DNA of 22,926 bases from an uncultured virus (IMG/VR IMGVR_UViG_3300037067_026316). Taxonomy: Duplodnaviria; Heunggongvirae; Uroviricota; Caudoviricetes. Where the stretch lies: the IMG/VR virus record IMGVR_UViG_3300037067_026316, one strand, 5' to 3'. Below the pieces are notes generated by a model, which was not told the origin of the DNA, did no database searches, and saw only the letters and a program-made list of their open reading frames with translations. Positions 2,212 to 22,926 of the stretch are shown in pieces; positions within the stretch are counted from its first letter, which is position 1; the number at the start of each line of letters is the position of its first letter. Both the position numbers and the translations under genes were made by a program.

Positions 2212-2733
2212 ATGAGAAAATTGTCTATGCTGCTGTTGTGGATTGTTCTCATAATCCATATGGCTGCTGCTGCAGAAGATCTAAAGGATATCCAAGTCTA
2301 CGCTAAGTACTACGCAAAGTATTCTATGGATAACCAAGATGCATTAGATGATTATCTAAATATTTCCTTCTTGCTGAAAGATGAAGGCAAGAATATCGCT
2401 ATAGATGGCAATTTTGTCATAATGGTAACGACAGATCGCGGGTTTATCTATGCTAAGGAGGTAGGATCTTTAAAATCATCTGATTTTGTAAAAAAAGTAA
2501 TAAGATGGCCTACAGATCAAGAGATAACGACCACAACTATAAGATCTCCTGAAATAAGCATCAATGGATCTAAATTCATTAATATAGAAATAAACAAAAC
2601 AAATGGAAAATACGAGAATCTAGGGCATAAAGCTCCCTATGGATCAGGAACAGTATCCATTGTATTTACAGATCAAGAAGGAACTCGATTTGTAGGAGAA
2701 TCTCGTATTCAATTCAGGGGTCCAAAGTACTAA
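2212..2733 (+). CDS. Secreted/surface hypothetical protein
   Basis: N-terminal MRK, hydrophobic stretch and AAA signal peptide. The stop codon directly abuts the GGYNN array. Confidence 0.7.
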   Translation: MRKLSMLLLWIVLIIHMAAAAEDLKDIQVYAKYYAKYSMDNQDALDDYLNISFLLKDEGKNIAIDGNFVIMVTTDRGFIYAKEVGSLKSSDFVKKVIRWPTDQEITTTTIRSPEISINGSKFINIEINKTNGKYENLGHKAPYGSGTVSIVFTDQEGTRFVGESRIQFRGPKY

Positions 2734-2935
2734 GGCAAGGTTCAAGGCGAGGCCGGGCGGGGCTAGGCAGGGCATGGGCTTGGCAAGGCAGGGCTGGGCT
2801 TGGCAAGGCAGGGCCGGGCCGGGCAGGGCATGGCTTGGCAAGGCAAGGTTCAAGGCGCGGCCAAGCTAGGCAAGGCAGGGCAGGGCTTGGCAAGGCAGGG
2901 CTTGGCAAGGCAAGGCAAGGTTCGAGGCGTGGTGT
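2734..2935 (+). repeat. GGY-NN pentamer array 1 (putative guide-RNA-like ncRNA array)
   Basis: Parsed by hand into 36 pentamers (34 GGCNN, 1 GGTNN, 1 AGCTA), 3 GGTTCRA heptamers (2739, 2847, 2919) and one extra G (2776), totalling 202 nt. It is a GC-rich island in an AT-rich genome. Confidence 0.9.
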
Positions 2936-2979
2936 TATCATTTAAAAAGATAAAAACAAGTTAGAGGAGATGAAAAGAA

Positions 2980-3498
2980 ATGAGATCGATAGAAGCAATA
3001 GTTGCTATAGCCCTTTGCACGGCTATAGTTTGGCCTGTATGTATAGCCGCCGATTTCAACTCTGTAACATGGAGTACAGGAGATGGTATAACGGTGACAG
3101 AATATACCATAATTGGCGGGAAGCTGACAACTTCAGAGAAATGGCTGAAAGCTTCGGATGGAACAGTACTTTATGAAGGCAACTATCGGAATGGTGGACA
3201 GGTCCAATGGTCTGTGCTTCCTCCTAAGAAGCCTACAAGCATGTTTGACAATACGCCACAAGTATTCCAGCAGTCTATAAGCTTCTCTGGATTCCCAAAT
3301 AATTATGGACCTACTACCACCTGGGGAAGTTCTACAACTTCAGGCAGTGGAGGATCTTCCTTAGAAGCTTATAACAACTTTATATCAAAACCCATAGGCA
3401 GAGATTCAAGCAGTAGCAGCAATTCATTTACAGATAAATTCAATGCCTTTGGTGCAAAGTATGGAGGATCAAGCTTTAAACCTCTAAGCTTTAGCTAA
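2980..3498 (+). CDS. Secreted hypothetical protein with Ser/Gly/Thr-rich C-terminal half
   Basis: Signal peptide MRSIEAIVAIALCTAIVWPVCIA and a low-complexity S/G/T tail. Confidence 0.65.
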   Translation: MRSIEAIVAIALCTAIVWPVCIAADFNSVTWSTGDGITVTEYTIIGGKLTTSEKWLKASDGTVLYEGNYRNGGQVQWSVLPPKKPTSMFDNTPQVFQQSISFSGFPNNYGPTTTWGSSTTSGSGGSSLEAYNNFISKPIGRDSSSSSNSFTDKFNAFGAKYGGSSFKPLSFS

Positions 3499-3524
3499 GA
3501 AGGAGAGAATAATTCTCTTCTTCT
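3498..3524 (+). terminator. Short hairpin after the secreted-protein gene, possible terminator or processing site
   Basis: AGAAGGAGAGAAT / ATTCTCTTCTTCT inverted repeat with one G-U pair. Confidence 0.35.
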
Positions 3525-3543
3525 CTATTATTCCGAGGTTTTC

Positions 3544-3825
3544 ATGAAAGGACCTGCTGCAGAAGCAATAAAACTAGCTACAAAAAGAGCCAAACGCAAA
3601 TTTATTAGATGCCAGGGCAAAGGCGGGATATGCCCTAATCCTGCAAGTCAACAGACAGACAGAATACCTGGGGCCTATTGTGATTTTTGCAAACTGGAAG
3701 TAGATAGAACCATTCAACGGATGAGAGAATATGTAGAAGAAAATAATCTAATAGACCACGATGCTGTAGTTAAGAAGTTAAAATCAATGGGGTTTATAGT
3801 AAACAGGATAAAGGTTAAAAAATGA
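3544..3825 (+). CDS. Hypothetical Cys4 zinc-binding protein
   Basis: GAGG RBS. C-x6-C ... YCDFC. Confidence 0.6.
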   Translation: MKGPAAEAIKLATKRAKRKFIRCQGKGGICPNPASQQTDRIPGAYCDFCKLEVDRTIQRMREYVEENNLIDHDAVVKKLKSMGFIVNRIKVKK

Positions 3826-3989
3826 TCTGCTCTGTAAATGACTGTAACAAGGAAGCAACAGTAAGGTTCAGACCTTTAGGGAATATTCCTCTCTGCGAAG
3901 GGCACCGTAAGGAAATTTATGAGGTTAGGGAAAAAGCTTACCGTAAACATAACATTTTTCAAGTTGAAAATGTACAAGATAACATGTAG
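3822..3989 (+). CDS. Small C3H zinc-finger protein, 55 aa (MICSVNDCNKEA...LCEGH), not in the ORF track
   Basis: ATGA overlap with the upstream gene. C-x4-C ... LCxxH motif. Confidence 0.65.
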   Translation: MICSVNDCNKEATVRFRPLGNIPLCEGHRKEIYEVREKAYRKHNIFQVENVQDNM

Positions 3990-4180
3990 AGAGACCTGAT
4001 CTCTCTAAAGTTTAAGACTATGAAGCTAAGGCCATCCTCTCCCTTTTACCTTCCTGCTGGTCTTGGCTTCAAGAAATTTTTAGATACATAGTTATGATCT
4101 ACAAGACAAAAATTTTTACGAACAAAGAAAAATAGTTTAATTCAAGATAATAAATAGGTCTTCTGATATTGATTTCAAGA

Positions 4181-4200
4181 CCGGAAGGTTTAAGCATATA
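4181..4200 (+). promoter_or_regulatory. Putative BRE-TATA promoter of nrdD
   Basis: CCGGAAGG-TTTAAG about 50 nt upstream of the ATG. GAGGT RBS before 4241. Confidence 0.4.
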
Positions 4201-4240
4201 TAGAACAAAGAGCTGAATTCAAATAGAATAGAGGTATTAT

Positions 4241-7200
4241 ATGAAATCTAACAAATATTTAGAAGGACTTATTCGCGGCCTTCAGGAAAGAACTAAATGT
4301 TCTATGGATCTTTTTGGCATTGAGCCTATAGATCATGCTGAAGCAGAAAAAGTTGTAAAAATTGCTATGAAAGTTGCTGATCAATTACCATTTCTAGACA
4401 TAAACGAACAACTAGAGAATGAATTAATCTGTCAAACTTTAAGAAGTAGAGGACATGAAGAATATGCAAACATTTATAGTATGGTAGGAATACCAGTAGA
4501 AAATCTAATAAATACAATAACAGGTAACGGTTTTGAAGCAAGAGAGAATGCAAATTTACAAAACAATGCTGAAACATCGCATAAAAAGGGTGCAGATGAT
4601 TTATTTAAAAAATTCTATTTGAAACTTTTACCAATTAAAATTAAAGAAATGCATGAAAATGGAGATCTACATATTCATGATTTAGAATATTTTGGAACCA
4701 GGCCCTTCTGCATTCCAGATAATGAAATAGTTCTTAGAAGGAGAGATGGTAATGTACAGATAGCAGCACCAAGTACATGTCAGGTAGGCGATGAACTACA
4801 TACTAACGACGGATGGAACACTATTAAATTCATCACCAAAAGGCAATACAAGGGTGACTTGATAACTATTAGTACTGCCAACGGCGGAACGGTCACAACT
4901 ACGCCAGAGCACCGCATACCTACAACAAAAGGTATCAAACCTTGTAGCGATCTTATATTAAAAGATGAATTAATATCTACTAATGAAGATCATCATCTTC
5001 AAGGAAAAGAAGAAATATCAGAGATAGAAGCGCTATTCTTAGGAACCTACATAGCTGATGGACATTCTATAGGACGTTCTGATATTGGCTATCAAGTCAT
5101 AATATCTGACGATTCTCCTATATCTGAAAAAATAGTAAAAGATTTAGCTGCAAAAAGAGGATATAACTTATGCATTTCAAAGATACCTCATAAATGCCCT
5201 CAGTATATTATCTGCAGAAAGGAGCTGTATTCCGAATTAGTTGATAAATACGGCATCAATACAGGTGCTTTAAATAAATCTCTTCCAAAGAATATCTTCA
5301 ATATGCCCTTAGAAAGACAAAAAGATATCATAGCTGCTATGTTTCATGGCGATGGCGGTGTTTTTTACCAACCTAAAAAATCAAGCATAACAATTAATTA
5401 TACTACTATATCAAGAACGCTAATGAAACAACTTGGATTGTGGCTTACTCTAAACGGGATATCATTTAGAGTAAAGAAAAAAATGGTATCTGATGGTAGT
5501 AAATATTATATCAATTCTCAACTTATTAATTCACGGCATACTATCTACATAATACGCATAAATCGCGATGGACTAAAGAAGCTAAAGTTCTTAGGGAAAC
5601 AAAAAGAGCATGTAGAAAAGTATCTGTCAAATATCAATCAAATTCAACGCAAACCAAAGAAGAATAATATCATCTCAATAGAAAAAAATCAATTTGAGGG
5701 GAATGTTTACGACTTTGGTTTAGAAGGAGCTAATGATGATCCTCTAAAACATCAATTCTTAGCCGGAACGGGTGTAGTAATCAACAATTGCATGGACTGG
5801 GATCTACGCTATTTCCTCTACTATGGATTAATGCCTGATGGAAATGGAACTAAAGCTTCCGTGAGTGGGCCTGCAATGCATCCTGAAGTAGCCGTTCTAC
5901 ATGCAGTAAAAGTTTTAGGCAGCGCTCAGACAAACTTTGCCGGAGGACAAGGCTATTATAATTTCTTAACATTTTTAGCTCCTTATTTTCATCATTTACC
6001 CTACAAAAAGATAAAACAACTAATGCAAATGTTCGTTTTTGAGATGACTCAAATGATGGTTGCTCGCGGCGGCCAATTGGTCTTCTCTTCGGTGCAACTA
6101 TCTCCTGGGGTCCCTAGATTATGGAAGGATAAGCCTGTTGTAGCGTTTGGGAAATGCTTTGATGGCAAGAAAGAAAAAAGATGGGAGTATGGAGATCTGG
6201 AAGCTGAAGTAAGGCTAATGTTCATGGCTCTAATGGAAGTGCTCCTTCAAGGAGATTATTGGAACAAACCATTCAACTTCCCTAAACCTGAAATAGTACT
6301 TGATAAAGAATTTGTAGATAATATGAATGCAGAGTCTCCTTCTATCGATTCTTGTTATGAAATTGACAAACTACCAACATTTTATGATCTTTACCTTAAA
6401 GCGTTTGAATTATCAGCTAATACAGGCTCTCCTTACTTTGATAATTGCATACCAGATTATCGTAGCCCGATGGGTGGAGAAGGTATAGCTTGTTATCAAT
6501 GTTGTAGCTATAGATTTTCAACTTCAATAGAAGCTGATCCAGATTTTAGAGACAAACTTAACTTCAAAGAAGGCGCTCATTTTTCAATGGGTAGCTTCCA
6601 AGTAGTAACAATTAACATTCCAAGAATAGCATACAAATCAAAAGATTTAGATGAATGTATAGTAAACATCAAAAAAATGATGAAAGAATCAATGCAGATC
6701 TTCTATGCTAAGGCGTATTGGATGAATAAAATGAAAGAAAGCAATCGGATGCCCTTCATTTCTCAAAGACCCCATAATCCAGCCTGTAAGACATTAAAAG
6801 GCCCTGAGGCTGCAGATCTATCATCTCTAACATATATCTTCGGTATAGTAGGCTTAGAAGAAGCCGTACAGAGCCTTTCATGCATGAAGATGGAAGATTC
6901 TATTGAGGCATGGGAAATAGGCCTTACTATTGTCTCTGAGATGGAAGGCTATCTAGAAGAGCTGGAAAAAGAAAGTGGTTTTATACTGGCAATAGCCCGG
7001 ACTCCAGCAGAGACTGTAGCCGGAAGGTTTGCAGCCCTTGATCTGATGAATGAAGAAATAGTTTATCAAGCTATGGATGTTATAAAAGGAGATGTTGCAG
7101 GTTGCCTAGCAAAGATACATGCCTTTGGAGATAAAAGCACAGATCAACCGGTCTACTATACTAATGGTACTCATATACCAGTATCCGCTACTATATCTTT

Positions 7201-7543
7201 AGGAAAGAAAGCTGAAAGGGAAGGAGCATTTTTCCCCATATTAAGCGGCGGGAATATTATGCACATATTCCTAGGAGAGGAAACTCCTAACCCTGAGGCA
7301 CTAATGAGTTTTGCGCTTAAATTAGCTAGAGAGACTCCAGTAGGCTATTTTTGCTTTACCAGGGACTTTACTATCTGTCTCGATTGTGATAGAATATCTG
7401 CAGGGTTAAAAAATGAATGCCCCTTATGCAGGTCAGATAGGATAGACCACATCAGTAGAGTAACAGGATATAATCAAGCAGTTAGCGGCTGGAACAACGC
7501 AAAACAGCAAGAACTAAAGGATAGAATAAGATATACTTTGTAA
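4241..7543 (+). CDS. nrdD: Anaerobic (class III) ribonucleoside-triphosphate reductase, intein-containing
   Basis: ENAN, GDLHIHDLEY, QTNFAGGQG, FPKP, finger loop YQCCSYRF, RTPAET, YYTNGTH, GGNIMH, Zn site CLDC..CPLC and glycyl-radical loop SRVTGY. Confidence 0.95.
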   Translation: MKSNKYLEGLIRGLQERTKCSMDLFGIEPIDHAEAEKVVKIAMKVADQLPFLDINEQLENELICQTLRSRGHEEYANIYSMVGIPVENLINTITGNGFEARENANLQNNAETSHKKGADDLFKKFYLKLLPIKIKEMHENGDLHIHDLEYFGTRPFCIPDNEIVLRRRDGNVQIAAPSTCQVGDELHTNDGWNTIKFITKRQYKGDLITISTANGGTVTTTPEHRIPTTKGIKPCSDLILKDELISTNEDHHLQGKEEISEIEALFLGTYIADGHSIGRSDIGYQVIISDDSPISEKIVKDLAAKRGYNLCISKIPHKCPQYIICRKELYSELVDKYGINTGALNKSLPKNIFNMPLERQKDIIAAMFHGDGGVFYQPKKSSITINYTTISRTLMKQLGLWLTLNGISFRVKKKMVSDGSKYYINSQLINSRHTIYIIRINRDGLKKLKFLGKQKEHVEKYLSNINQIQRKPKKNNIISIEKNQFEGNVYDFGLEGANDDPLKHQFLAGTGVVINNCMDWDLRYFLYYGLMPDGNGTKASVSGPAMHPEVAVLHAVKVLGSAQTNFAGGQGYYNFLTFLAPYFHHLPYKKIKQLMQMFVFEMTQMMVARGGQLVFSSVQLSPGVPRLWKDKPVVAFGKCFDGKKEKRWEYGDLEAEVRLMFMALMEVLLQGDYWNKPFNFPKPEIVLDKEFVDNMNAESPSIDSCYEIDKLPTFYDLYLKAFELSANTGSPYFDNCIPDYRSPMGGEGIACYQCCSYRFSTSIEADPDFRDKLNFKEGAHFSMGSFQVVTINIPRIAYKSKDLDECIVNIKKMMKESMQIFYAKAYWMNKMKESNRMPFISQRPHNPACKTLKGPEAADLSSLTYIFGIVGLEEAVQSLSCMKMEDSIEAWEIGLTIVSEMEGYLEELEKESGFILAIARTPAETVAGRFAALDLMNEEIVYQAMDVIKGDVAGCLAKIHAFGDKSTDQPVYYTNGTHIPVSATISLGKKAEREGAFFPILSGGNIMHIFLGEETPNPEALMSFALKLARETPVGYFCFTRDFTICLDCDRISAGLKNECPLCRSDRIDHISRVTGYNQAVSGWNNAKQQELKDRIRYTL
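4709..5788 (+). mobile_element. Intein with LAGLIDADG homing endonuclease in NrdD (360 aa)
   Basis: Begins CIPDNE after TRPF. Block B TTTPEHRI, LAGLIDADG motifs FLGTYIADG and IIAAMFHGDG, block F VYDFGL. Ends VINN with +1 Cys. Excision restores TRPF-CMDWDLRYF. Confidence 0.92.
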
Positions 7544-7858: not shown

Positions 7859-8722
7859 ATGTTAAATATGATGATAGATGAAAAACCCATTAGACCATCA
7901 TATAATACTTATTTTATGGATATATGTAAGGTAGTAGCCACAAGATCAACCTGTATAAGGCACCATGTAGGAGCTATCATTACAAAAAATAAAAGAATAT
8001 TATCAACCGGATACAATGGTGCTCCTGCTGGTTTACATCATTGCATCGATATTGGATGTCCTAGAAAAGATATGCCTTCAGGCACTATGCATGAGTTATG
8101 TAGAGCTGTCCATGCAGAACAAAACGCTATTATTCAAGCAGCCTTACACGGAATATCTATAGAGGGAGCAACTCTCTATTGCACCCATCAACCATGTATT
8201 CTCTGCTCAAAAATGATTATTAACTCTGGAATTGTTGAAGTAGTTTATGAAGAAGAATATAACGAGAAATCTGGTCTAAAAATGCTTAGAGAAGCCGGGA
8301 TAAAAATATTACAGTATAAAAAATATGAAGAATTAGATAAAATAGAGATGGATATACATGAATATAAGATGAATAATATGAAATCTTCCTGCAACTTATA
8401 TAAAAAATCAACATTAGAAATAATAGAATTTAGTCATAATCATAATAATCAAGAAGGGCTTTATACTCATTCTCATTCTTTTTCTATAAATGAAACTAAT
8501 AACCATCAGTATACAGATCCTATATTAATAGATTTAGATCCTTCTATACCAGGTCCACAAGATAAACACCCTAACCTATTTCTTCAAACCGTTGTAAACC
8601 ATCATTATGTTTCACAAGATTTACATCATAAAAATGAATATAACAAAGGTATGCTTGATTGTCAGAATGTACCTATACCTGCATGGAAAAGAATAGAAAT
8701 AAGAAAAATAAAAGAGGTTTAA
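7859..8722 (+). CDS. dCMP deaminase (ComEB-like) with His-rich C-terminal extension
   Basis: RSTC..HVGA, TGYNGAP, HAEQNAI and PCILC zinc-deaminase motifs. About 130 extra residues follow the deaminase domain. Confidence 0.9.
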   Translation: MLNMMIDEKPIRPSYNTYFMDICKVVATRSTCIRHHVGAIITKNKRILSTGYNGAPAGLHHCIDIGCPRKDMPSGTMHELCRAVHAEQNAIIQAALHGISIEGATLYCTHQPCILCSKMIINSGIVEVVYEEEYNEKSGLKMLREAGIKILQYKKYEELDKIEMDIHEYKMNNMKSSCNLYKKSTLEIIEFSHNHNNQEGLYTHSHSFSINETNNHQYTDPILIDLDPSIPGPQDKHPNLFLQTVVNHHYVSQDLHHKNEYNKGMLDCQNVPIPAWKRIEIRKIKEV

Positions 8723-13468: not shown

Positions 13469-13534
13469 GGCTGAGATAAAGCTGAGAAAAAGTTAAGATA
13501 AGACTAAGAAAGGAATAAGATAGGACTGAGAAAA
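13469..13534 (+). repeat. Six imperfect 11-bp tandem repeats (iteron-like)
   Basis: GGCTGAGATAA AGCTGAGAAAA AGTTAAGATAA GACTAAGAAAG GAATAAGATAG GACTGAGAAAA. Confidence 0.55.
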
Positions 13535-13756
13535 TAAGAAGAAGATGGAATACACATAAAATAATAAAAAACTATCTATGTGAATGAAGAATCAAACTAA
13601 AAAATGTAAGATAGATATTGAGTTAGAACTGAATAGAAAAAGTTAGGAAGCTCGTAAAATGCCCGTAAATCAACGATCTCTCTGGAAGGTAGAGGGTTGC
13701 CCGGAAAAAGGGAAGAAATGCCCGGAAAGAAAGGATAGGATGGTAAGGAGAAGGTT

Positions 13757-16225
13757 ATGATGGACATAGAGAAGGTCAATAAATCAACTACAGATCAGAT
13801 AGCTAATTTGCCAGAGATAAGAATACCACAGAACTTGCAAAAACCCGAGTTTCGGTTTGTTAAACTCATAATGTGGGAAAAGAAGGCTTTTGAGCCTGGT
13901 TGGACTCGTACAACAAACTATACTCATGATGCTATAGGGCTGCGGAACTGGTTAGCTAAAGGCGGAAACTATGGAGTGAGTACAGGGATAGGCGGGCTTC
14001 TGGTAGTGGATATCGATAATGTAGCACGAATGGAAGAGCTGGGAATTCTGGAGAGAATGCCGGAGACCTATACAGTACGAACCAGGAGCGGAGGGCTTCA
14101 TTTCTACTATATATGCAATGATTTTGATAAAAAAAGGATAATGTATGATCTGGTAAAGACTCAAACTTACGTAAGCGGCGGGAAAGAGTCTCAGGGATAC
14201 ATGCACCTGGGGGAAATGCAATGGATGGGGCAACAGGTAGTAGGGCCTACATCCCGGTATAGGGAAATAGGAGAAGATTCTTCAGTAAGAATACAAATCT
14301 GGAAGGAAGAAAATCTTTCAGCAATAAGAGAAATTAGTTTTTCTGAAATAATGAATGTGTTCACTAGCAAAGTCCGTTTTAGCAGAAAATTAGAAAATCC
14401 AGCAACTGAAGAGGATGATATAGAAAGTATGGAGAAAGCAGAAAAAACAAGAGTAGGAAAGATAAAAAGAACTCAAAAAAGTTCCAGAATTGAGCCTCTT
14501 AAGATAGGATGGTTGGATAAGATTAAAATAGCTGATATAGCGCTGCCGAATCCTATAATAAAGAGCGATCCTAATGGGTCTGGAGAAATTCAGGGTGGGC
14601 ATCCTTTACATGGATCAGATAATGGACTTAATTTTTCTGTAAATGTGAAAAAGAATATCTGGCATTGCTTTAGGGATGATAGCGGTGGAGGGCCTCTTGA
14701 ACTAGTAGCTATGATGAATGGCTTAATTGAGTGTGGAGAGGCTGGCAGAGGCTGCCTGCTAAAAAGAGAAGGGCTATTACAGAAGACCATAGAACTCTTA
14801 ATCAACAAGTATGACATAGATCCTAAAGAAATTCCTTATGAAATCAGAGAAGGAAAAGCAACAGAGATTAAGATTTCTCGCGTAAAAAGAATTGTAGAGT
14901 CTGTTGCAGAATATATGAATATAATAACCCTTTCTGCAAGTGAAAAGAGTTTAATTTATCAGGATGGGGTCTATAAAGAAGCTCCAAATTTAATCTTGAA
15001 AAGTTTTTGTCTATCACTTGGAGCAATGACCAATAACATGAGATCTGAATGTCTGGAAATGCTAAAAGCATCTACTGTAGTAGATGAAAGGGATATGGAT
15101 AATGATCCTTTTGCGATTTGTGTAGAGAATGGAATCTTATCAATTAACCCGGAAACATGGGAAATAACTTTGCTTCCTCATGATCCCAATTACATGAATA
15201 TGATAAAACTTCCAATATCATATGTTCCTGATAGCAATTGTCCTAAGATTAAGGAATTTATTAAAGATTTGTTTATAACAAATATGTGCCCTATTTGCCA
15301 TAAAGCTATTGATGGAGATATATGCGAAAAATGCAGAATTAAAGGAGTAGAAATCGGATATAATTCTATTCTTACTGTAGAGGAGCTTTTTGGATATTTG
15401 ATATTTAAGAGGCATTTTATCCATAAAGCTTTTCTATTTGTAGGAGCAGGAAGAAATGGAAAGAGTACGCTTCTAGGACTCATGAGGAGTTTTCTTGGAG
15501 ATGAAAATGTAACATCAATTCCTATTCAGAAGTTAGAGGATCGATTTACTCCTTCGGAACTGTTTGGGAAGCTGGCAAATATCAGTGGGGATATCTCCAC
15601 TGAAGCTTTAAAACATACAGAAAGATTTAAAGAAATAACAGGAGAAGACTTTTTGTTGGTAGAGAAAAAATTTCAGCATCCCTTTCCAATGGTAAATATA
15701 GCAAAACAAATATTTACCGGAAACCAAGTGCCGAAGACAGGAGATGGAAGTTATGGATTTTATTCACGGTTTATTATTCTTAATTTTCTGAAAAGATTCG
15801 ATTTCGAACCTGGAGCTGACAAAGCTCCAAACCCGAATTTACTGAGAGATCTTACATCTCCGGAAGAGATGAGCGGATTGTTAAACCTAGCATTGGATAG
15901 GCTAAAGGATTTAGTGGCTAATAACAAATTTACAGGAGCCTTAAGCGTATCGGAAACATCAGAAATGTTTGAAGAGTTATCGAATCCTGAAGATGTAATC
16001 AGGCAATTCTATGGAGAGTGCTTGGTTCCTCAGCCTAATGGGTTTGTAGGAACTTTAGAGTTAGATCAAAAGTTTCAAGAGTGGACAAAGATATATGGGT
16101 ATAAACCTATATATATAAACATATTTATTAAGCTCTTGAAAAAAATGTACCATTTGAGGAGCATGAGGAAGAATATAAATGGGCACTACATAACGGTTTT
16201 ACTAGGTATTGAAATGCAGAAATAA
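13757..16225 (+). CDS. Primase-helicase: bifunctional Prim-Pol N-terminus, Zn-finger-like domain, D5/P4-family SF3 helicase
   Basis: NYGVSTG..LLVVDID and TVRTRSGGLHFYY (Prim-Pol). HPLHGS..NFSVN..WHCF..GGG (CHC2-like). ICVENGIL (D5_N). Walker A GAGRNGKST, LFGKLANISGD, FKEITGED, IFTGN and arginine finger SRF. Confidence 0.9.
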   Translation: MMDIEKVNKSTTDQIANLPEIRIPQNLQKPEFRFVKLIMWEKKAFEPGWTRTTNYTHDAIGLRNWLAKGGNYGVSTGIGGLLVVDIDNVARMEELGILERMPETYTVRTRSGGLHFYYICNDFDKKRIMYDLVKTQTYVSGGKESQGYMHLGEMQWMGQQVVGPTSRYREIGEDSSVRIQIWKEENLSAIREISFSEIMNVFTSKVRFSRKLENPATEEDDIESMEKAEKTRVGKIKRTQKSSRIEPLKIGWLDKIKIADIALPNPIIKSDPNGSGEIQGGHPLHGSDNGLNFSVNVKKNIWHCFRDDSGGGPLELVAMMNGLIECGEAGRGCLLKREGLLQKTIELLINKYDIDPKEIPYEIREGKATEIKISRVKRIVESVAEYMNIITLSASEKSLIYQDGVYKEAPNLILKSFCLSLGAMTNNMRSECLEMLKASTVVDERDMDNDPFAICVENGILSINPETWEITLLPHDPNYMNMIKLPISYVPDSNCPKIKEFIKDLFITNMCPICHKAIDGDICEKCRIKGVEIGYNSILTVEELFGYLIFKRHFIHKAFLFVGAGRNGKSTLLGLMRSFLGDENVTSIPIQKLEDRFTPSELFGKLANISGDISTEALKHTERFKEITGEDFLLVEKKFQHPFPMVNIAKQIFTGNQVPKTGDGSYGFYSRFIILNFLKRFDFEPGADKAPNPNLLRDLTSPEEMSGLLNLALDRLKDLVANNKFTGALSVSETSEMFEELSNPEDVIRQFYGECLVPQPNGFVGTLELDQKFQEWTKIYGYKPIYINIFIKLLKKMYHLRSMRKNINGHYITVLLGIEMQK

Positions 16226-19494: not shown

Positions 19495-21081
19495 ATGTTA
19501 TATAGAAAGAGCTTAGATCAAACATCAGGAAGGACAATGAAACTGAAGTTTGAAAGAAAAGAGTTATCGCTCATAGGTCGTTATCTAGCAAGGCCATTGA
19601 AAAAAGAGGAAGTAGAGGCCTTACAGTGGACCTATGATAGTTTTGCATATTTTACATATACTATTTATAAATGGGCTGTACAAAGGCATTTTGAAGAATT
19701 TGTTGGTGGACAATTTATAATTGATGAATGCAATTTCCTGCAGAACAACGATAAGACAATAACAGTAGAACCAAGAGCTCATTGGAAGAGCATGAGGTTT
19801 TATGCTTATCTAATGTGGAGGCTTTGGAAGAATAGGTATGATAGAAGGAATATAAGATCATCTTATTTTTCTTATAGAAAGACGCTAGCAGAAGAGCACG
19901 TTCAAACATTAAAGTATCTTGTTGGAGACTCTATTCTTCCTATCCTGGGAATGGTAGATGAAAAGGGAAGAGCGGATACATTAGCAAGATTTACATGGGA
20001 TTCCCACAGGCCTATGAGTGACCGTAAGAGGTTTATGGTTAAGCCTCATGGTCTCCTTGAGTTCTCAAGAGGCACTCATACTGAGATTGTACTTGTGGAT
20101 GATCCTCTTAAAGATGATTCTGATCCTAATGCAAGGACTAATGTCTGGCGAATTAATTCTATATTTGTCTCTGTAGTGATGAATATTCCTACCAGGGATG
20201 GAGTTTTACATGTAGTAGGAACTCCTCAAACAGAGGATGATTTTTTATTTGATAAGAATATTCAGAAAGAATTTAAAACTAGAGTAAAACCTGCTATATA
20301 TGTTGAGAATGGAGAGGAGAAAGCTCTATGGCCTGAGATGTTTCCCCTAGATCTTCTAAAAAAGATGAGGGAAAGCCGGAAGATAAAGCTGAAAGGCGGT
20401 GTGGTCTCAACCTTCGAGCAAGAATATATGTGCGCTCCCAGGGCTGCAGCATTTTCTTACTTTGACCATGAGCTATGCCAAAGATGTATAGATATATCTC
20501 TCCACAACAACGACTTTTTCAGCATAGGGGTTAAGTGGAGGCCATTCGCTGGAAGATATTGCATAGCAGGATATGACCCTGGCAAAAGGGTTAATCCAGG
20601 TCATTTTTCAGTTCTTGAAGTCTATGGAGGTCATTATACTCAACTTCTCAGCAAGTGGTTCGACCATGTAGATTATGCATCTGTAGGAGAAGTGGGATAC
20701 TCTCAATTTTCCTATATTAATAAAGCTAGAGAAAAATTGCATATTACTTCTATTATGGCAGATAATACTAGAGGAGAGCTTACTACTGCAGAAGAAAGAA
20801 AGATCATTCCGGGTTTGGTTTGTGTTTCCATCACCCCTAGAAAGAAAATGGAAATGGCACAGGCTATCGATTCTGCGATGACTGATAGAGTTCTACATCT
20901 TGTAGATGATGCAAGGCAAACCAGACAGCTCATGGGCATTCAGCAGGATCTGACTTGTGCGAGCACTTCTGAAGGCCATGGAGAGCCGTTAACTACCATA
21001 GGATTGCCCCTTTCTACTTTATATTTCAAGCAGGGGCTTCTAGGAGCTAGGAGAGGGAGTTATCTCATAAAGCTTCATTAA
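19495..21081 (+). CDS. terL: Terminase large subunit
   Basis: Walker A variant PRAHWKS, Walker B IVLVDDP, coupling motif VVGTP, LWPE, FEQEYMC, RNase H-like nuclease AGYDPG. The start may be the second Met. Confidence 0.85.
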   Translation: MLYRKSLDQTSGRTMKLKFERKELSLIGRYLARPLKKEEVEALQWTYDSFAYFTYTIYKWAVQRHFEEFVGGQFIIDECNFLQNNDKTITVEPRAHWKSMRFYAYLMWRLWKNRYDRRNIRSSYFSYRKTLAEEHVQTLKYLVGDSILPILGMVDEKGRADTLARFTWDSHRPMSDRKRFMVKPHGLLEFSRGTHTEIVLVDDPLKDDSDPNARTNVWRINSIFVSVVMNIPTRDGVLHVVGTPQTEDDFLFDKNIQKEFKTRVKPAIYVENGEEKALWPEMFPLDLLKKMRESRKIKLKGGVVSTFEQEYMCAPRAAAFSYFDHELCQRCIDISLHNNDFFSIGVKWRPFAGRYCIAGYDPGKRVNPGHFSVLEVYGGHYTQLLSKWFDHVDYASVGEVGYSQFSYINKAREKLHITSIMADNTRGELTTAEERKIIPGLVCVSITPRKKMEMAQAIDSAMTDRVLHLVDDARQTRQLMGIQQDLTCASTSEGHGEPLTTIGLPLSTLYFKQGLLGARRGSYLIKLH

Positions 21082-21145: not shown

Positions 21146-21835
21146 ATGGCTTTCAAGAAAGAGAATGAGATCCCTGATAATGGGTATATAGATCTGCAGA
21201 TTGCGGCACCAATAAAGTATATTGTGAGCATTGTAGGACAATCAGATATTCTATTTAATCGAATGATAGATCAATCTGAGACTCCTGCAGAAGGAGTTTT
21301 AAACGGAAGTAAAAAGAGTGCAATTACAAAGGACAAAGCAGAAGTTGAGAGGCAGATCTGGAGGGAGAAGGCATACTTCAGACCAGAGAGTGAAGTTCTG
21401 TATATCCCAGGAGAGAACATTCATCAATGCATGGTAGATGGGGCTTCCTACTGGGGTATGACTATACCAGGTAGAGGAAAGACTCAGTATACAGGAGTGG
21501 TAAAGGCTGGAGTTATTTGCCAGGATATAAGCCTTGCAACATTGGATAGCGAAGGAAACTACGTTGAAGCAACAAAGGCTGATCTGGTTAGCTTCGGAAG
21601 GTCTGTGAATGGTACTCCTACTAAAGGAAAAGGAAGTAAGGTTTATAGAATCCGTCCTTCGCTGGAAAGCTGGAATGGAACATTCCTAATGACAGTTATA
21701 GATGCCCGTCTTACTCCTCAGATTTTGAGAACAATAGTCTCATATGCAGGCCTATATAGGGGTCTAGGGGATTGGAGGCCTAACCATGGGCGCTTTGAGC
21801 TGGAGCACCTGGGAGAAGTTATGGGTAAGGCATAA
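21146..21835 (+). CDS. Stand-alone RAMP/Cas7-like protein (putative RNA-guided effector)
   Basis: First strand IVSIVGQSDILFN. LYIPGENIHQCMVDGA resembles the RAMP YIPGSSxKG motif. RIRPSLESW-x-GTF strand. C-terminal Gly-rich loop AGLYRGLGDWRPNHGRF. Confidence 0.75.
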   Translation: MAFKKENEIPDNGYIDLQIAAPIKYIVSIVGQSDILFNRMIDQSETPAEGVLNGSKKSAITKDKAEVERQIWREKAYFRPESEVLYIPGENIHQCMVDGASYWGMTIPGRGKTQYTGVVKAGVICQDISLATLDSEGNYVEATKADLVSFGRSVNGTPTKGKGSKVYRIRPSLESWNGTFLMTVIDARLTPQILRTIVSYAGLYRGLGDWRPNHGRFELEHLGEVMGKA

Positions 21836-21863
21836 GCTGCCCATACCTTTTTAGGTGGTTTTT

Positions 21864-22646
21864 ATGAAAGAGTTGTCTTCGGCAGATACCAAAGAGCTTG
21901 TTAATTTGTATATTGAAGAGCTCGGACAGACTGGAACGGCTAGAAAGCTTACAGAACTTGGATATAGGAGCCCTGAAGGTTCTTCAATTTTACAAGCACA
22001 TATACATAAAATTATGCATGGAGCAAATATTTGCCTTTTAGCTCCTGAGAAAGAGCAGCAACTTAAGGATGTTATAGAAAGTAAAGAACAAACTCAGATA
22101 GATATTTGGGCTCCTTATGATCCATTCATCCCTAATAAGCGTATAAGGAGTCCACAAGATATCATAGAAGATGCTGCAAATTGGATAAATGATGTGGTTT
22201 GTAAAGTTAAGATGTATGGAGAAGTTCCTAAAGGAGAAATACAATTTACTCATATCTTAATGTCAAATCTTCTTGAGGTGAATTATATTCCTGGTAGAGT
22301 AAATAGAGTCTACTATGACTTTGTAACTGATCTTAGGGTAGTTTTGATGAAAAAGTATGGTATTTCTCTTAGGACCTTAAGATTTAGGTGTTCAGCTAAT
22401 GGGGAGACTGGCGGCTATGCTGTAGAGACTAGAGGGCAATTTTCTTATGTAAGTCAGCTTTTGGATAAGATGGTTAGTTATGGGTCTCGCGCATCGATGT
22501 ATATATCTCAAATAGAGGCACGGCAATTGGAAATTCAAGATCCTCAACTTAAGGAGAGAATTCAAAGAATTAGGCCTCAGCTTCTTGGTATGAATGAAAA
22601 ACTAGGGACTTCTAGGATACGTATCGGCAAGAGGGAGAATTTATGA
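21864..22646 (+). CDS. Hypothetical protein with N-terminal HTH-like domain, co-operonic with the RAMP-like gene
   Basis: AGGTGG RBS before ATG 21864 (track start 21855). TARKLTELGYRSPEG resembles the DNA-binding helix motif of recombinase/HTH domains. Confidence 0.6.
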   Translation: MKELSSADTKELVNLYIEELGQTGTARKLTELGYRSPEGSSILQAHIHKIMHGANICLLAPEKEQQLKDVIESKEQTQIDIWAPYDPFIPNKRIRSPQDIIEDAANWINDVVCKVKMYGEVPKGEIQFTHILMSNLLEVNYIPGRVNRVYYDFVTDLRVVLMKKYGISLRTLRFRCSANGETGGYAVETRGQFSYVSQLLDKMVSYGSRASMYISQIEARQLEIQDPQLKERIQRIRPQLLGMNEKLGTSRIRIGKRENL

Positions 22647-22846
22647 GAAAATCAAGTGTAAAGTTAGAGCTTAATGGTGAGGAAAGGTTGTTGTTTACTA
22701 AACCTAGATTAAGACAAATTGATAGCAATGGACGGGTATTTGTGTCTAAGAATTATGTTGGCAAAGAGGTTCTAATGTTGTTAATTGATCCTATAGATGA
22801 GGATTTTAAGAACTTCAATCCTATAGCGAAGACTTACATCTTGTGA
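22643..22846 (+). CDS. Small AbrB/DUF2080-like swapped-hairpin DNA-binding protein
   Basis: RQIDSNGRVFVSKNYVGKEVLMLL. ATGA-coupled to the upstream gene. Confidence 0.6.
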   Translation: MRKSSVKLELNGEERLLFTKPRLRQIDSNGRVFVSKNYVGKEVLMLLIDPIDEDFKNFNPIAKTYIL

Positions 22847-22862
22847 ATAAAGTTAAAATAAA

Positions 22863-22926
22863 GGCAAGGCAAGGTTCAAGGCCTGGCATGGCTAGGCTAG
22901 GCAGGGCAAGGCAAGGCAAGGCAAGG
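22863..22926 (+). repeat. GGY-NN pentamer array 2 (truncated by the window end)
   Basis: GGCAA GGCAA GGTTCAA GGCCT GGCAT GGCTA GGCTA GGCAG GGCAA GGCAA GGCAA GGCAA GG. Same delimiter as array 1. Confidence 0.88.

Follow-up and report, generated by a model that had tools for sequence, protein, structure and literature searches.

A probable vrRNA guide array of a VIPR system, located 18 kb from the vipr gene of an uncultured tailed virus

What is the role of a stretch of viral DNA in which a nearly fixed triplet is repeated dozens of times, each copy followed by two variable bases? The question is raised by positions 2734-2935 of an AT-rich tailed-virus genome from an uncultured virus (IMG/VR record IMGVR_UViG_3300037067_026316), of which the whole stretch of 22,926 nucleotides was analyzed and is referred to here as the window. 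A sequence-only reading of this DNA had interpreted the array as a guide locus acting in trans with a distant RAMP-like gene. We consider it very probable that the array is a vrRNA guide array of a tailed-phage VIPR system, which would be read from the plus strand as two guides, coated by Vipr and used to silence a rival element. This interpretation is based on the homology of the Vipr protein, the linkage of gene and array recovered in a blind scan, the delimiter architecture of the clade, the variability of the proximal array in an otherwise identical contig and the match to the published system.

VIPR (Viral Interference Programmable Repeat) consists of a stand-alone RAMP protein, Vipr, and of vrRNAs of about 100 nt, in which 9-16 YNNGG repeats are capped by an invariant 3' tail; these RNAs were demonstrated by small-RNA sequencing and by co-purification with Vipr, in phage SUSP1 and in a prophage of P. 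fulva (10.64898/2026.04.26.720920). According to the same preprint, the NN dinucleotides guide binding to double-stranded DNA with one target base skipped and no PAM, by which satellites and rival prophages are silenced at the level of transcription. It distinguishes seven types, the SUSP1 and P. fulva systems belonging to type II, and six vap accessory genes; it also describes staggered tail-less arrays, arrays interspersed with hammerheads, systems with a single vrRNA, and vrRNAs on either side of vipr (10.64898/2026.04.26.720920). Structures of the Vipr filament and of the R-loop triplex have been described (10.64898/2026.04.26.720927), as has the competition between phages and satellites, in which satellites redirect phage VIPR to decoy sites by means of solo vrRNAs (10.64898/2026.10.15.759431), and 99 period-5 VIPR-like clusters have been recovered from intergenic sequence (10.64898/2026.10.21.760802). 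The kind of element discussed here is already reported in these 2026 bioRxiv preprints and its basic identity is not new; worth a note are the variant features, namely the 18-kb distance from vipr, the tail-less units bounded by GGTTC and a Block A expanded by duplication.

Parsed in register, the 202-nt stretch from 2734 to 2935 contains 39 units, of which 35 are pentamers, one is a 6-mer and three are heptamers. The 6-mer, GGCATG, has an extra G at 2776; with this unit counted in the pentamer register, the array holds 36 GGY-NN units, the number given in the sequence-only reading. The heptamers have the consensus GGTTCRA (GGTTCAA at 2739 and 2847, GGTTCGA at 2919) and divide the array, which is on the plus strand throughout, into five parts. 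A leader of one GGCAA and the first GGTTCAA delimiter (2734..2745), a start that is also seen at a second array near the 3' end of the window, is followed by the 20 GGC-NN units of Block A (2746..2846, candidate vrRNA 1), in which the 6-mer lies. A GGTTCAA delimiter (2847..2853), identified both from the parsing and from relatives, separates Block A from the 13 units of Block B (2854..2918, candidate vrRNA 2). The terminal GGTTCGA delimiter is followed by GGCGT GGTGT (2919..2935), similar to the endings in contigs L263 and L268; beyond it, a spacer rich in A and T leads to the ribosome-binding site that serves an ORF at 2980-3498. The dinucleotides of Block A read GA CG GG TA AG AT(+G) TT AA AG TG TT AA AG CG CG AG AT TT AA AA, and those of Block B, in which one scaffold is degenerate (AGC), read GC CA TA AA AG AG TT AA AG TT AA AA AA; both lists are identical to those in the earlier reading.

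The near-invariance that had been claimed for positions 1-3, and the variability of positions 4-5, were borne out by the composition of the 36 units. Position 1 is G in 35 units and A in one, position 2 is always G, and position 3 is C in 35 units and T in one, so that a pyrimidine is found at this position in 36 of 36 units. The entropies are 0.18, 0 and 0.18 bit at positions 1-3, as compared to 1.72 and 1.70 bit at positions 4 and 5. A vrRNA is recognized by at least four tandem YNNGG/GGYNN units in which GGY is conserved and NN varies, a pattern that the array shows over 36 units. Tandem Repeats Finder (TRF) detected a period of 5 with 36.8 copies (2732-2920), overlaid by a period of 20 with 8.4 copies; it also detected another period-5 array, at 22861-22926, that is cut by the window end. 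The pattern GGCNNGGCNNGGCNNGGC had 27 matches in the window, all on the plus strand and all within one of the two arrays, versus none in 100 dinucleotide shuffles. The GC content is 0.65 at 2700-2899 versus 0.32-0.38 in the upstream flank.

Readings of the array as something other than a guide locus were also tried. A coding function was rejected, as the frame of the upstream ORF meets a TAG 10 codons beyond its stop; for the array of about 950 nt in the related contig L019, overlapping ORFs occur in all frames and no single frame covers the array. The likeness of GGTTCRA to a tRNA T-loop was likewise set aside: the window contains no tRNA, and 115 of the 116 viral-contig matches of the 15-mer GGCAAGGTTCRAGGC, which spans the delimiter, have no array. 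Rfam families, the hammerhead included, were not detected in the window or in seven related loci; no family matched the arrays, and L118 and L143 contain no hammerhead match. The naked RNA of 2734-2935 was predicted to fold at -88.1 kcal/mol versus -77.1 kcal/mol in shuffles (z -3.5), despite a strong skew of G over C; no inference is drawn from this fold, because RNA coated by Vipr is not expected to retain it.

The RAMP-like gene that had been placed about 18 kb from the array is located at 21146..21835 on the plus strand, and its start is 18.2 kb downstream. It encodes a minimal RAMP protein of 229 amino acids that is predicted to bind GGY/NN repeat RNA, as indicated by phrog_4652, PDB 36pp_D and the modeled fold. 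A profile of the 30-member family that includes the window protein matched PDB 36pp_D, annotated as 'SUSP1 Vipr protein', with an E-value of 7.9e-39 over 194 of 211 profile positions, chain D of 36pp being one solved structure matched by this profile; the window protein alone matched the same chain in phmmer with an E-value of 1e-5 over its last 62 residues. The AlphaFold2 model (pLDDT 83.3, pTM 0.81) was most similar in Foldseek to the backbone subunits Cmr4, Csm3 and type VII Cas7 (E ~1e-6), with 98 PDB chains at E<=0.001. An ungapped pairwise alignment places R170, D209, W210 and R211 of the window protein on R138, D177, W178 and R179 of SUSP1 Vipr; SUSP1 H17 is outside the aligned C-terminal region. 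In SUSP1, R138 of the thumb and D177, W178 and R179 of the G-loop contact G1, G2 and Y3 of GGY (10.64898/2026.04.26.720927). In the 30-member alignment R211 is invariant and R170 is conserved in at least 90% of the members; W176 is also invariant but is aligned to none of these four SUSP1 residues. Because of the profile and direct matches to 36pp, the Cas7-like fold and the aligned residues that hold GG, we identify the RAMP-like gene, by homology and modeling, as vipr, the product being a member of the Vipr family of single-RRM RAMPs with a glycine-rich loop and a thumb, with a modeled fold like that of Cas7/Csm3/Cmr4.

Two small ORFs on the plus strand separate vipr from the second, proximal array. 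These ORFs, of 263 amino acids (21855-22646) and 67 amino acids (22643-22846), are in the position expected for vap genes and are candidate accessory genes. Neither had a match in Pfam or PHROG, and an Atlas search with the first gave no usable match; the 263-aa ORF is kept in the relative L258 with 69% identity over 186 aa. The proximal vrRNA array (22863..22926, plus strand) begins about 1 kb 3' of vipr with GGCAA GGCAA GGTTCAA and continues with at least nine units until it is cut by the window end. The proximal and the distal array are both on the vipr strand.

The association of such arrays with the gene family was examined by a blind scan of viral contigs for (GGCNN)6GGC, which returned at least 138 stretches. 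An HMM was built in three rounds from the ORFs adjoining the arrays, the seed clue being a C-terminus similar to that of the window ORF 21146-21835. Among the matches listed, a family member was found in 81 loci. Flanking sequence of up to 4 kb was included for 70 distinct contigs; in 52 of these a family ORF is present within 4 kb, and in 51 of the 52 it is on the same strand as the array (contig L166 is the exception). The array usually starts 0-60 nt past the stop of the gene, and is sometimes located just upstream of it or beyond one more small gene; the remaining 18 contigs have no family ORF within reach of the flank. In the control set, the 116 loci from the GGCAAGGTTCRAGGC scan, both gene and array were found in L019 only. 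This 150-kb viral contig has a GGTTC-delimited array (2946-3925) directly past the vipr stop, in which many scaffolds are degenerate (TGC, GGT, AGC), and a terminator-like hairpin is located 3' of the array. In two further loci, runs of about 13 pentamer units alternate with a conserved element of about 55 nt (L118, minus-strand array at 3081-3626) or a conserved hairpin of about 37 nt (L143, 3286-3570); these interspersed elements are probably structured vrRNA tails.

The strand linkage bears on the hypothesis that the array acts as a field of iterons in double-stranded DNA, for packaging, replication origin function or transcription control. Such a field would account for a short GC-rich repeat island in AT-rich intergenic surroundings and for a second copy downstream of the terminase region. 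However, a site in double-stranded DNA need not follow the strand of a RAMP gene, as the arrays do in the listed contigs. The partner is moreover an RNA-binding RAMP, a homologue of which co-purifies with such RNAs (10.64898/2026.04.26.720920), and by established geometry a 5-bp period places successive sites on opposite faces of B-DNA. Taken together, we consider this hypothesis very unlikely. Given the gene linkage and the PDB match, we also dropped several other candidate identities, namely an iteron field for packaging or replication origin, an element acting as G-quadruplex or terminator, and an RNA ring like that of TRAP. A separate candidate for a replication-origin iteron field is a 22-nt direct repeat of 3.1 copies with 11-nt sub-repeats (13474-13542), located in a 400-nt gap upstream of the primase-helicase gene.

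Closer relatives of the window protein were found in viral and metagenome contigs, with identities of 75% (L258), 47% (L255), 42% (L267) and 40% (L268), and in genome bins, where three loci encode Vipr proteins with 44, 44 and 38% identity. All seven have an array beside the gene and on its strand that is cut by GGTTC, and GGTTC delimiters were common to all 11 relatives' arrays examined. Lengths between delimiters were measured for 55 segments in 14 arrays. The length is 2 mod 5 for 47 of the 55 segments, which corresponds to NN plus whole pentamers, and 42 of the 44 segments of at least 42 nt contain 8-15 units. The two outliers are the upstream array of L255, with 19.4 units, and Block A of the window, with 20.2 units in this measure. 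Block A, with about twice the usual unit count of the clade, may have arisen by expansion or fusion. The unit that precedes the delimiter is mostly GGCAA or GGCAT, and the two bases after GGTTC vary, so that by its sequence the delimiter looks like a repeat in which the pyrimidine slot reads TTC. The conserved boundary (GGCAA)2-4-GGTTC-NN is common to the window and its relatives, with no long structured tail. Since the delimiters recur in all of these arrays, the division of the distal array into two units, as the sequence-only reading had proposed, is a reasonable interpretation on comparative grounds. The string GGTTC is absent from the main text of 10.64898/2026.04.26.720920 and of 10.64898/2026.10.15.759431 and from the supplement that was searched; the GGTTC-bounded arrays may correspond to the "staggered arrays" of Fig. 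S18 in the former, which is known from its legend.

The dinucleotides of the distal array are of low variety. Blocks A and B use 11 distinct NN among 33 units, AA, AG and TT making up 21 of the 33. The series TT-AA-AG/AA occurs five times, on account of which a contribution from slippage duplication had been anticipated; this caveat stands. Block A contains adjacent four-unit copies (TT AA AG TG, then TT AA AG CG) and Block B two adjacent copies of AG TT AA. These patterns are compatible with in-register duplications of 15-20 nt.

Comparison with near-identical genomes revealed variation within the arrays. In the 2,998 nt that come before the proximal array, contig L262 and the window show no differences; L262 contains a complete 12-unit version of this array. 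The dinucleotides of this array are CT AT TA TA AG AA AA AA AA... in the window and CT AC AT AT TA AG AC AA AA AA AA AA, followed by GGTTCAA, in L262. In the in-register alignment 9 of 47 columns differ, each of them at an NN position, and the two arrays are also unlike in unit content. The proximal array is therefore the variable spot of an otherwise identical 3-kb region. As regards the comparison of related genomes that had been proposed as a check on the guide interpretation, any GGCNN arrays that are aligned in register would differ only at NN, and the alignment by itself therefore leaves substitution of NN unseparated from gain or loss of units. About 300 nt past the 3' end of the window, just 3' of the proximal array, L262 contains the Rfam motif DUF3800-X RNA (3394-3464; 58.5 bits versus a gathering score of 38.2).

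For the distal array, metagenome contig L270 is 100% identical to the window at 2755-5928, including that part of the array. Logan contigs from four DNA runs match both flanks without differences; all of them end within the array and none extends across it, and many other Logan pieces derive from the arrays of other organisms. One contig of 138 nt (run X5, depth 5.3) joins 2774 to 2821, an in-register deletion of the 46 nt at 2775-2820. The deleted segment corresponds to nine units and the extra G, and its loss would leave a regular Block A of 11 units; as it comes from a single contig of low depth, we take this variant as no more than a lead. Another contig, of 125 nt and depth 2, lacks one base at 2775.

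In-register duplications, which appear as the period-20 row of TRF, and the 46-nt in-register deletion are also what one would expect of a functionless pentanucleotide microsatellite that arose by neutral slippage. We nevertheless regard this explanation as scarcely credible. A constant triplet followed by a variable dinucleotide is unlike slippage decay, as the sequence-only reading had argued, and the same pattern recurs beside the same gene family. Moreover, the delimiter architecture and the gene family persist at protein identities of 38-75% and at locus GC contents from 0.42 to 0.64.

The genomic position of the array suggests how a VIPR guide array might be expressed. It begins at 2734, the base after the TAA stop (2731-2733) of a 173-aa ORF (2212..2733, plus strand), in agreement with the claim that the array starts exactly at a stop codon. 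Because the stop directly abuts the array, the latter is probably a 3' UTR or co-transcript of this ORF. No sigma-70-like promoter was found on the plus strand between ORF and array, and a plus-strand scan for promoters and terminators beside the distal array gave nothing, although the promoter type of the host may differ. There was no RNA run among the public sequencing runs that matched the stretch. ORF 2212-2733 has an N-terminus similar to a signal peptide and no family match; ORF 2980-3498, downstream of the array, likewise has a hydrophobic signal-peptide-like N-terminus and no family match. Used as a query against viral contigs, ORF 2980-3498 had no relative and hence gave no orthologous distal locus.

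Elsewhere the window encodes an anaerobic ribonucleotide reductase NrdD with an intein (4241-7543), a dCMP deaminase (7859-8722), a PrimPol-D5 primase-helicase (13757-16225) and a large terminase (19495-21081). The NrdD intein carries a LAGLIDADG homing-endonuclease domain. The terminase matches Bacteroides phages at only 28% identity, other matches being metagenome proteins, and the bins that carry Vipr relatives are labelled Pelotomaculum, Saccharibacteria and Holophagaceae. TRF detected no CRISPR array (direct repeats of 25-40 nt with unique spacers) in the window, and the sole RAMP is the stand-alone Vipr, with no other cas genes.

Targets were searched for according to the rule of the VIPR preprints, which is a match of at least 80% of the NN positions under a 1-nt skip. 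In a scan of the window against its own guides, for which the arrays were masked, skips of 0-3 were allowed and each guide was shuffled 200 times, nothing exceeded the shuffled null. The 24 guides from clade relatives also remained within the shuffled-guide null when compared to the window. In IMG/VR, four gapped 18-base seeds from Blocks A and B gave one match each, which is approximately the chance level by our own estimate. On extension, agreement rose to 25-26 of 40 positions (62-65%) with Block A and to 19 of 26 with Block B; for one sub-guide it was 23 of 28 positions, 18 of which were forced by the seed. Target enrichment over shuffled controls, which had been proposed as a check, was not observed in the window, whether with its own guides or with the 24 clade guides, and the four IMG/VR seeds stayed at about the estimated chance level.

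The lack of a target in these searches would fit a degenerate or decoy array, perhaps transcribed and bound by Vipr with no specific DNA target, which could serve as a sponge or regulator of its own or a rival Vipr or could have originated as a copy of the proximal array that is now in decay. The low-complexity dinucleotides with their internal duplications of 15-20 nt would agree with this, as would the irregular Block A with its extra G and 20 units, and solo vrRNAs of satellites are reported to redirect VIPR (10.64898/2026.10.15.759431). However, the scaffold is near-perfect, with G in 35 of 36 units, G in 36 of 36 and a pyrimidine in 36 of 36, the intact delimiters speak against decay, and the array is 100% identical in the second assembly, L270. 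The missing target is in itself weak evidence, because the search was limited to seeds in IMG/VR and to local DNA. We therefore judge a decoy to be improbable.

For a functional VIPR guide array, the transcription, processing, loading and silencing steps can be outlined by analogy with the work on SUSP1 and P. fulva. The array would most likely be transcribed from the plus strand as the tail of the transcript of ORF 2212-2733, and the RNA would be cut or bounded at the GGTTC-NN units to give one guide RNA with 20 repeats and another with 13. As in SUSP1, Vipr protomers encoded at 21146-21835 would polymerise on the RNA, one per repeat, flipping out and holding each GGY and presenting the NN dinucleotides. 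The NN string would then recognize double-stranded DNA by gapped pairing (NN, one base skipped, NN, and onward in this way), and the resulting R-loop triplex may block transcription of a competing mobile element, again by analogy to SUSP1. A guide locus for the distant RAMP-like gene, as the sequence-only reading had suggested, is supported, since this gene belongs to the Vipr family and arrays of this kind are the guide RNAs demonstrated for SUSP1 and P. fulva (10.64898/2026.04.26.720920).

A more far-reaching reading, which we put forward as possible though rather doubtful, joins a distinct GGTTC-delimited vrRNA architecture with scattered passenger arrays and guides born by duplication. Here, the 7-nt GG-TTC-NN, a repeat with a pyrimidine slot two bases wider, would set the guide boundary, and VIPR-positive phages would place additional arrays at a great distance from vipr, carried as passengers at the 3' side of unrelated genes. 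New guides would originate when 3-4 units are duplicated in register and changes of NN follow, a primitive way of diversifying guides that needs no cassettes. This reading would explain the 20 units of Block A, the 11-unit deletion variant and the differing units of genomes that are otherwise identical.

VIPR, which has been reported only recently, is a form of RNA-guided DNA recognition with a non-contiguous code and a proposed ancestor of the CRISPR RAMPs. The window adds an environmental phage with a Vipr distant from that of SUSP1, tail-less arrays bounded by GGTTC and a second array 18 kb away. It bears on how the ends of vrRNAs are set without a pseudoknot tail, on the expression of guides with unrelated transcription units and on changes in the guide repertoire between near-identical genomes.

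In comparison with the SUSP1 and P. fulva systems, the window shares a virus-borne minimal RAMP with a D-W-R G-loop and a thumb arginine, GGY/NN pentamers on the gene strand in arrays that are located past stops in long intergenic regions, and dinucleotides that are hypervariable among close relatives. It differs from SUSP1 in that a pairwise search detects identity between the Vipr proteins in the C-terminal 62 residues only, and in that its array lacks the pseudoknot tail of about 40 nt, the units being bounded instead by 7-nt GG-TTC-NN elements. The 20 repeats of Block A exceed the 9-16 reported for published VIPR, and the distal array is 18 kb from vipr, unlike published arrays that flank the gene. 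The absence of an adjacent vipr is a feature shared with the solo or orphan vrRNAs reported in satellites and VIPR-null phages (10.64898/2026.10.15.759431). In contrast to these, the genome of the window itself encodes vipr, 18 kb off, and the distal array is therefore better described as dispersed than as orphan. As for the Cas7/Csm3/Cmr4 backbone of class 1 CRISPR systems, the likeness is in the fold of Vipr, in the use of one protomer per RNA repeat and in base flipping induced by the thumb. Unlike class 1 CRISPR, the window has no CRISPR repeats or spacers and no other cas genes, and the guide is non-contiguous, with a period of 5 nt and 2 informative bases as compared to 6 nt and 5 informative bases in class 1 CRISPR.
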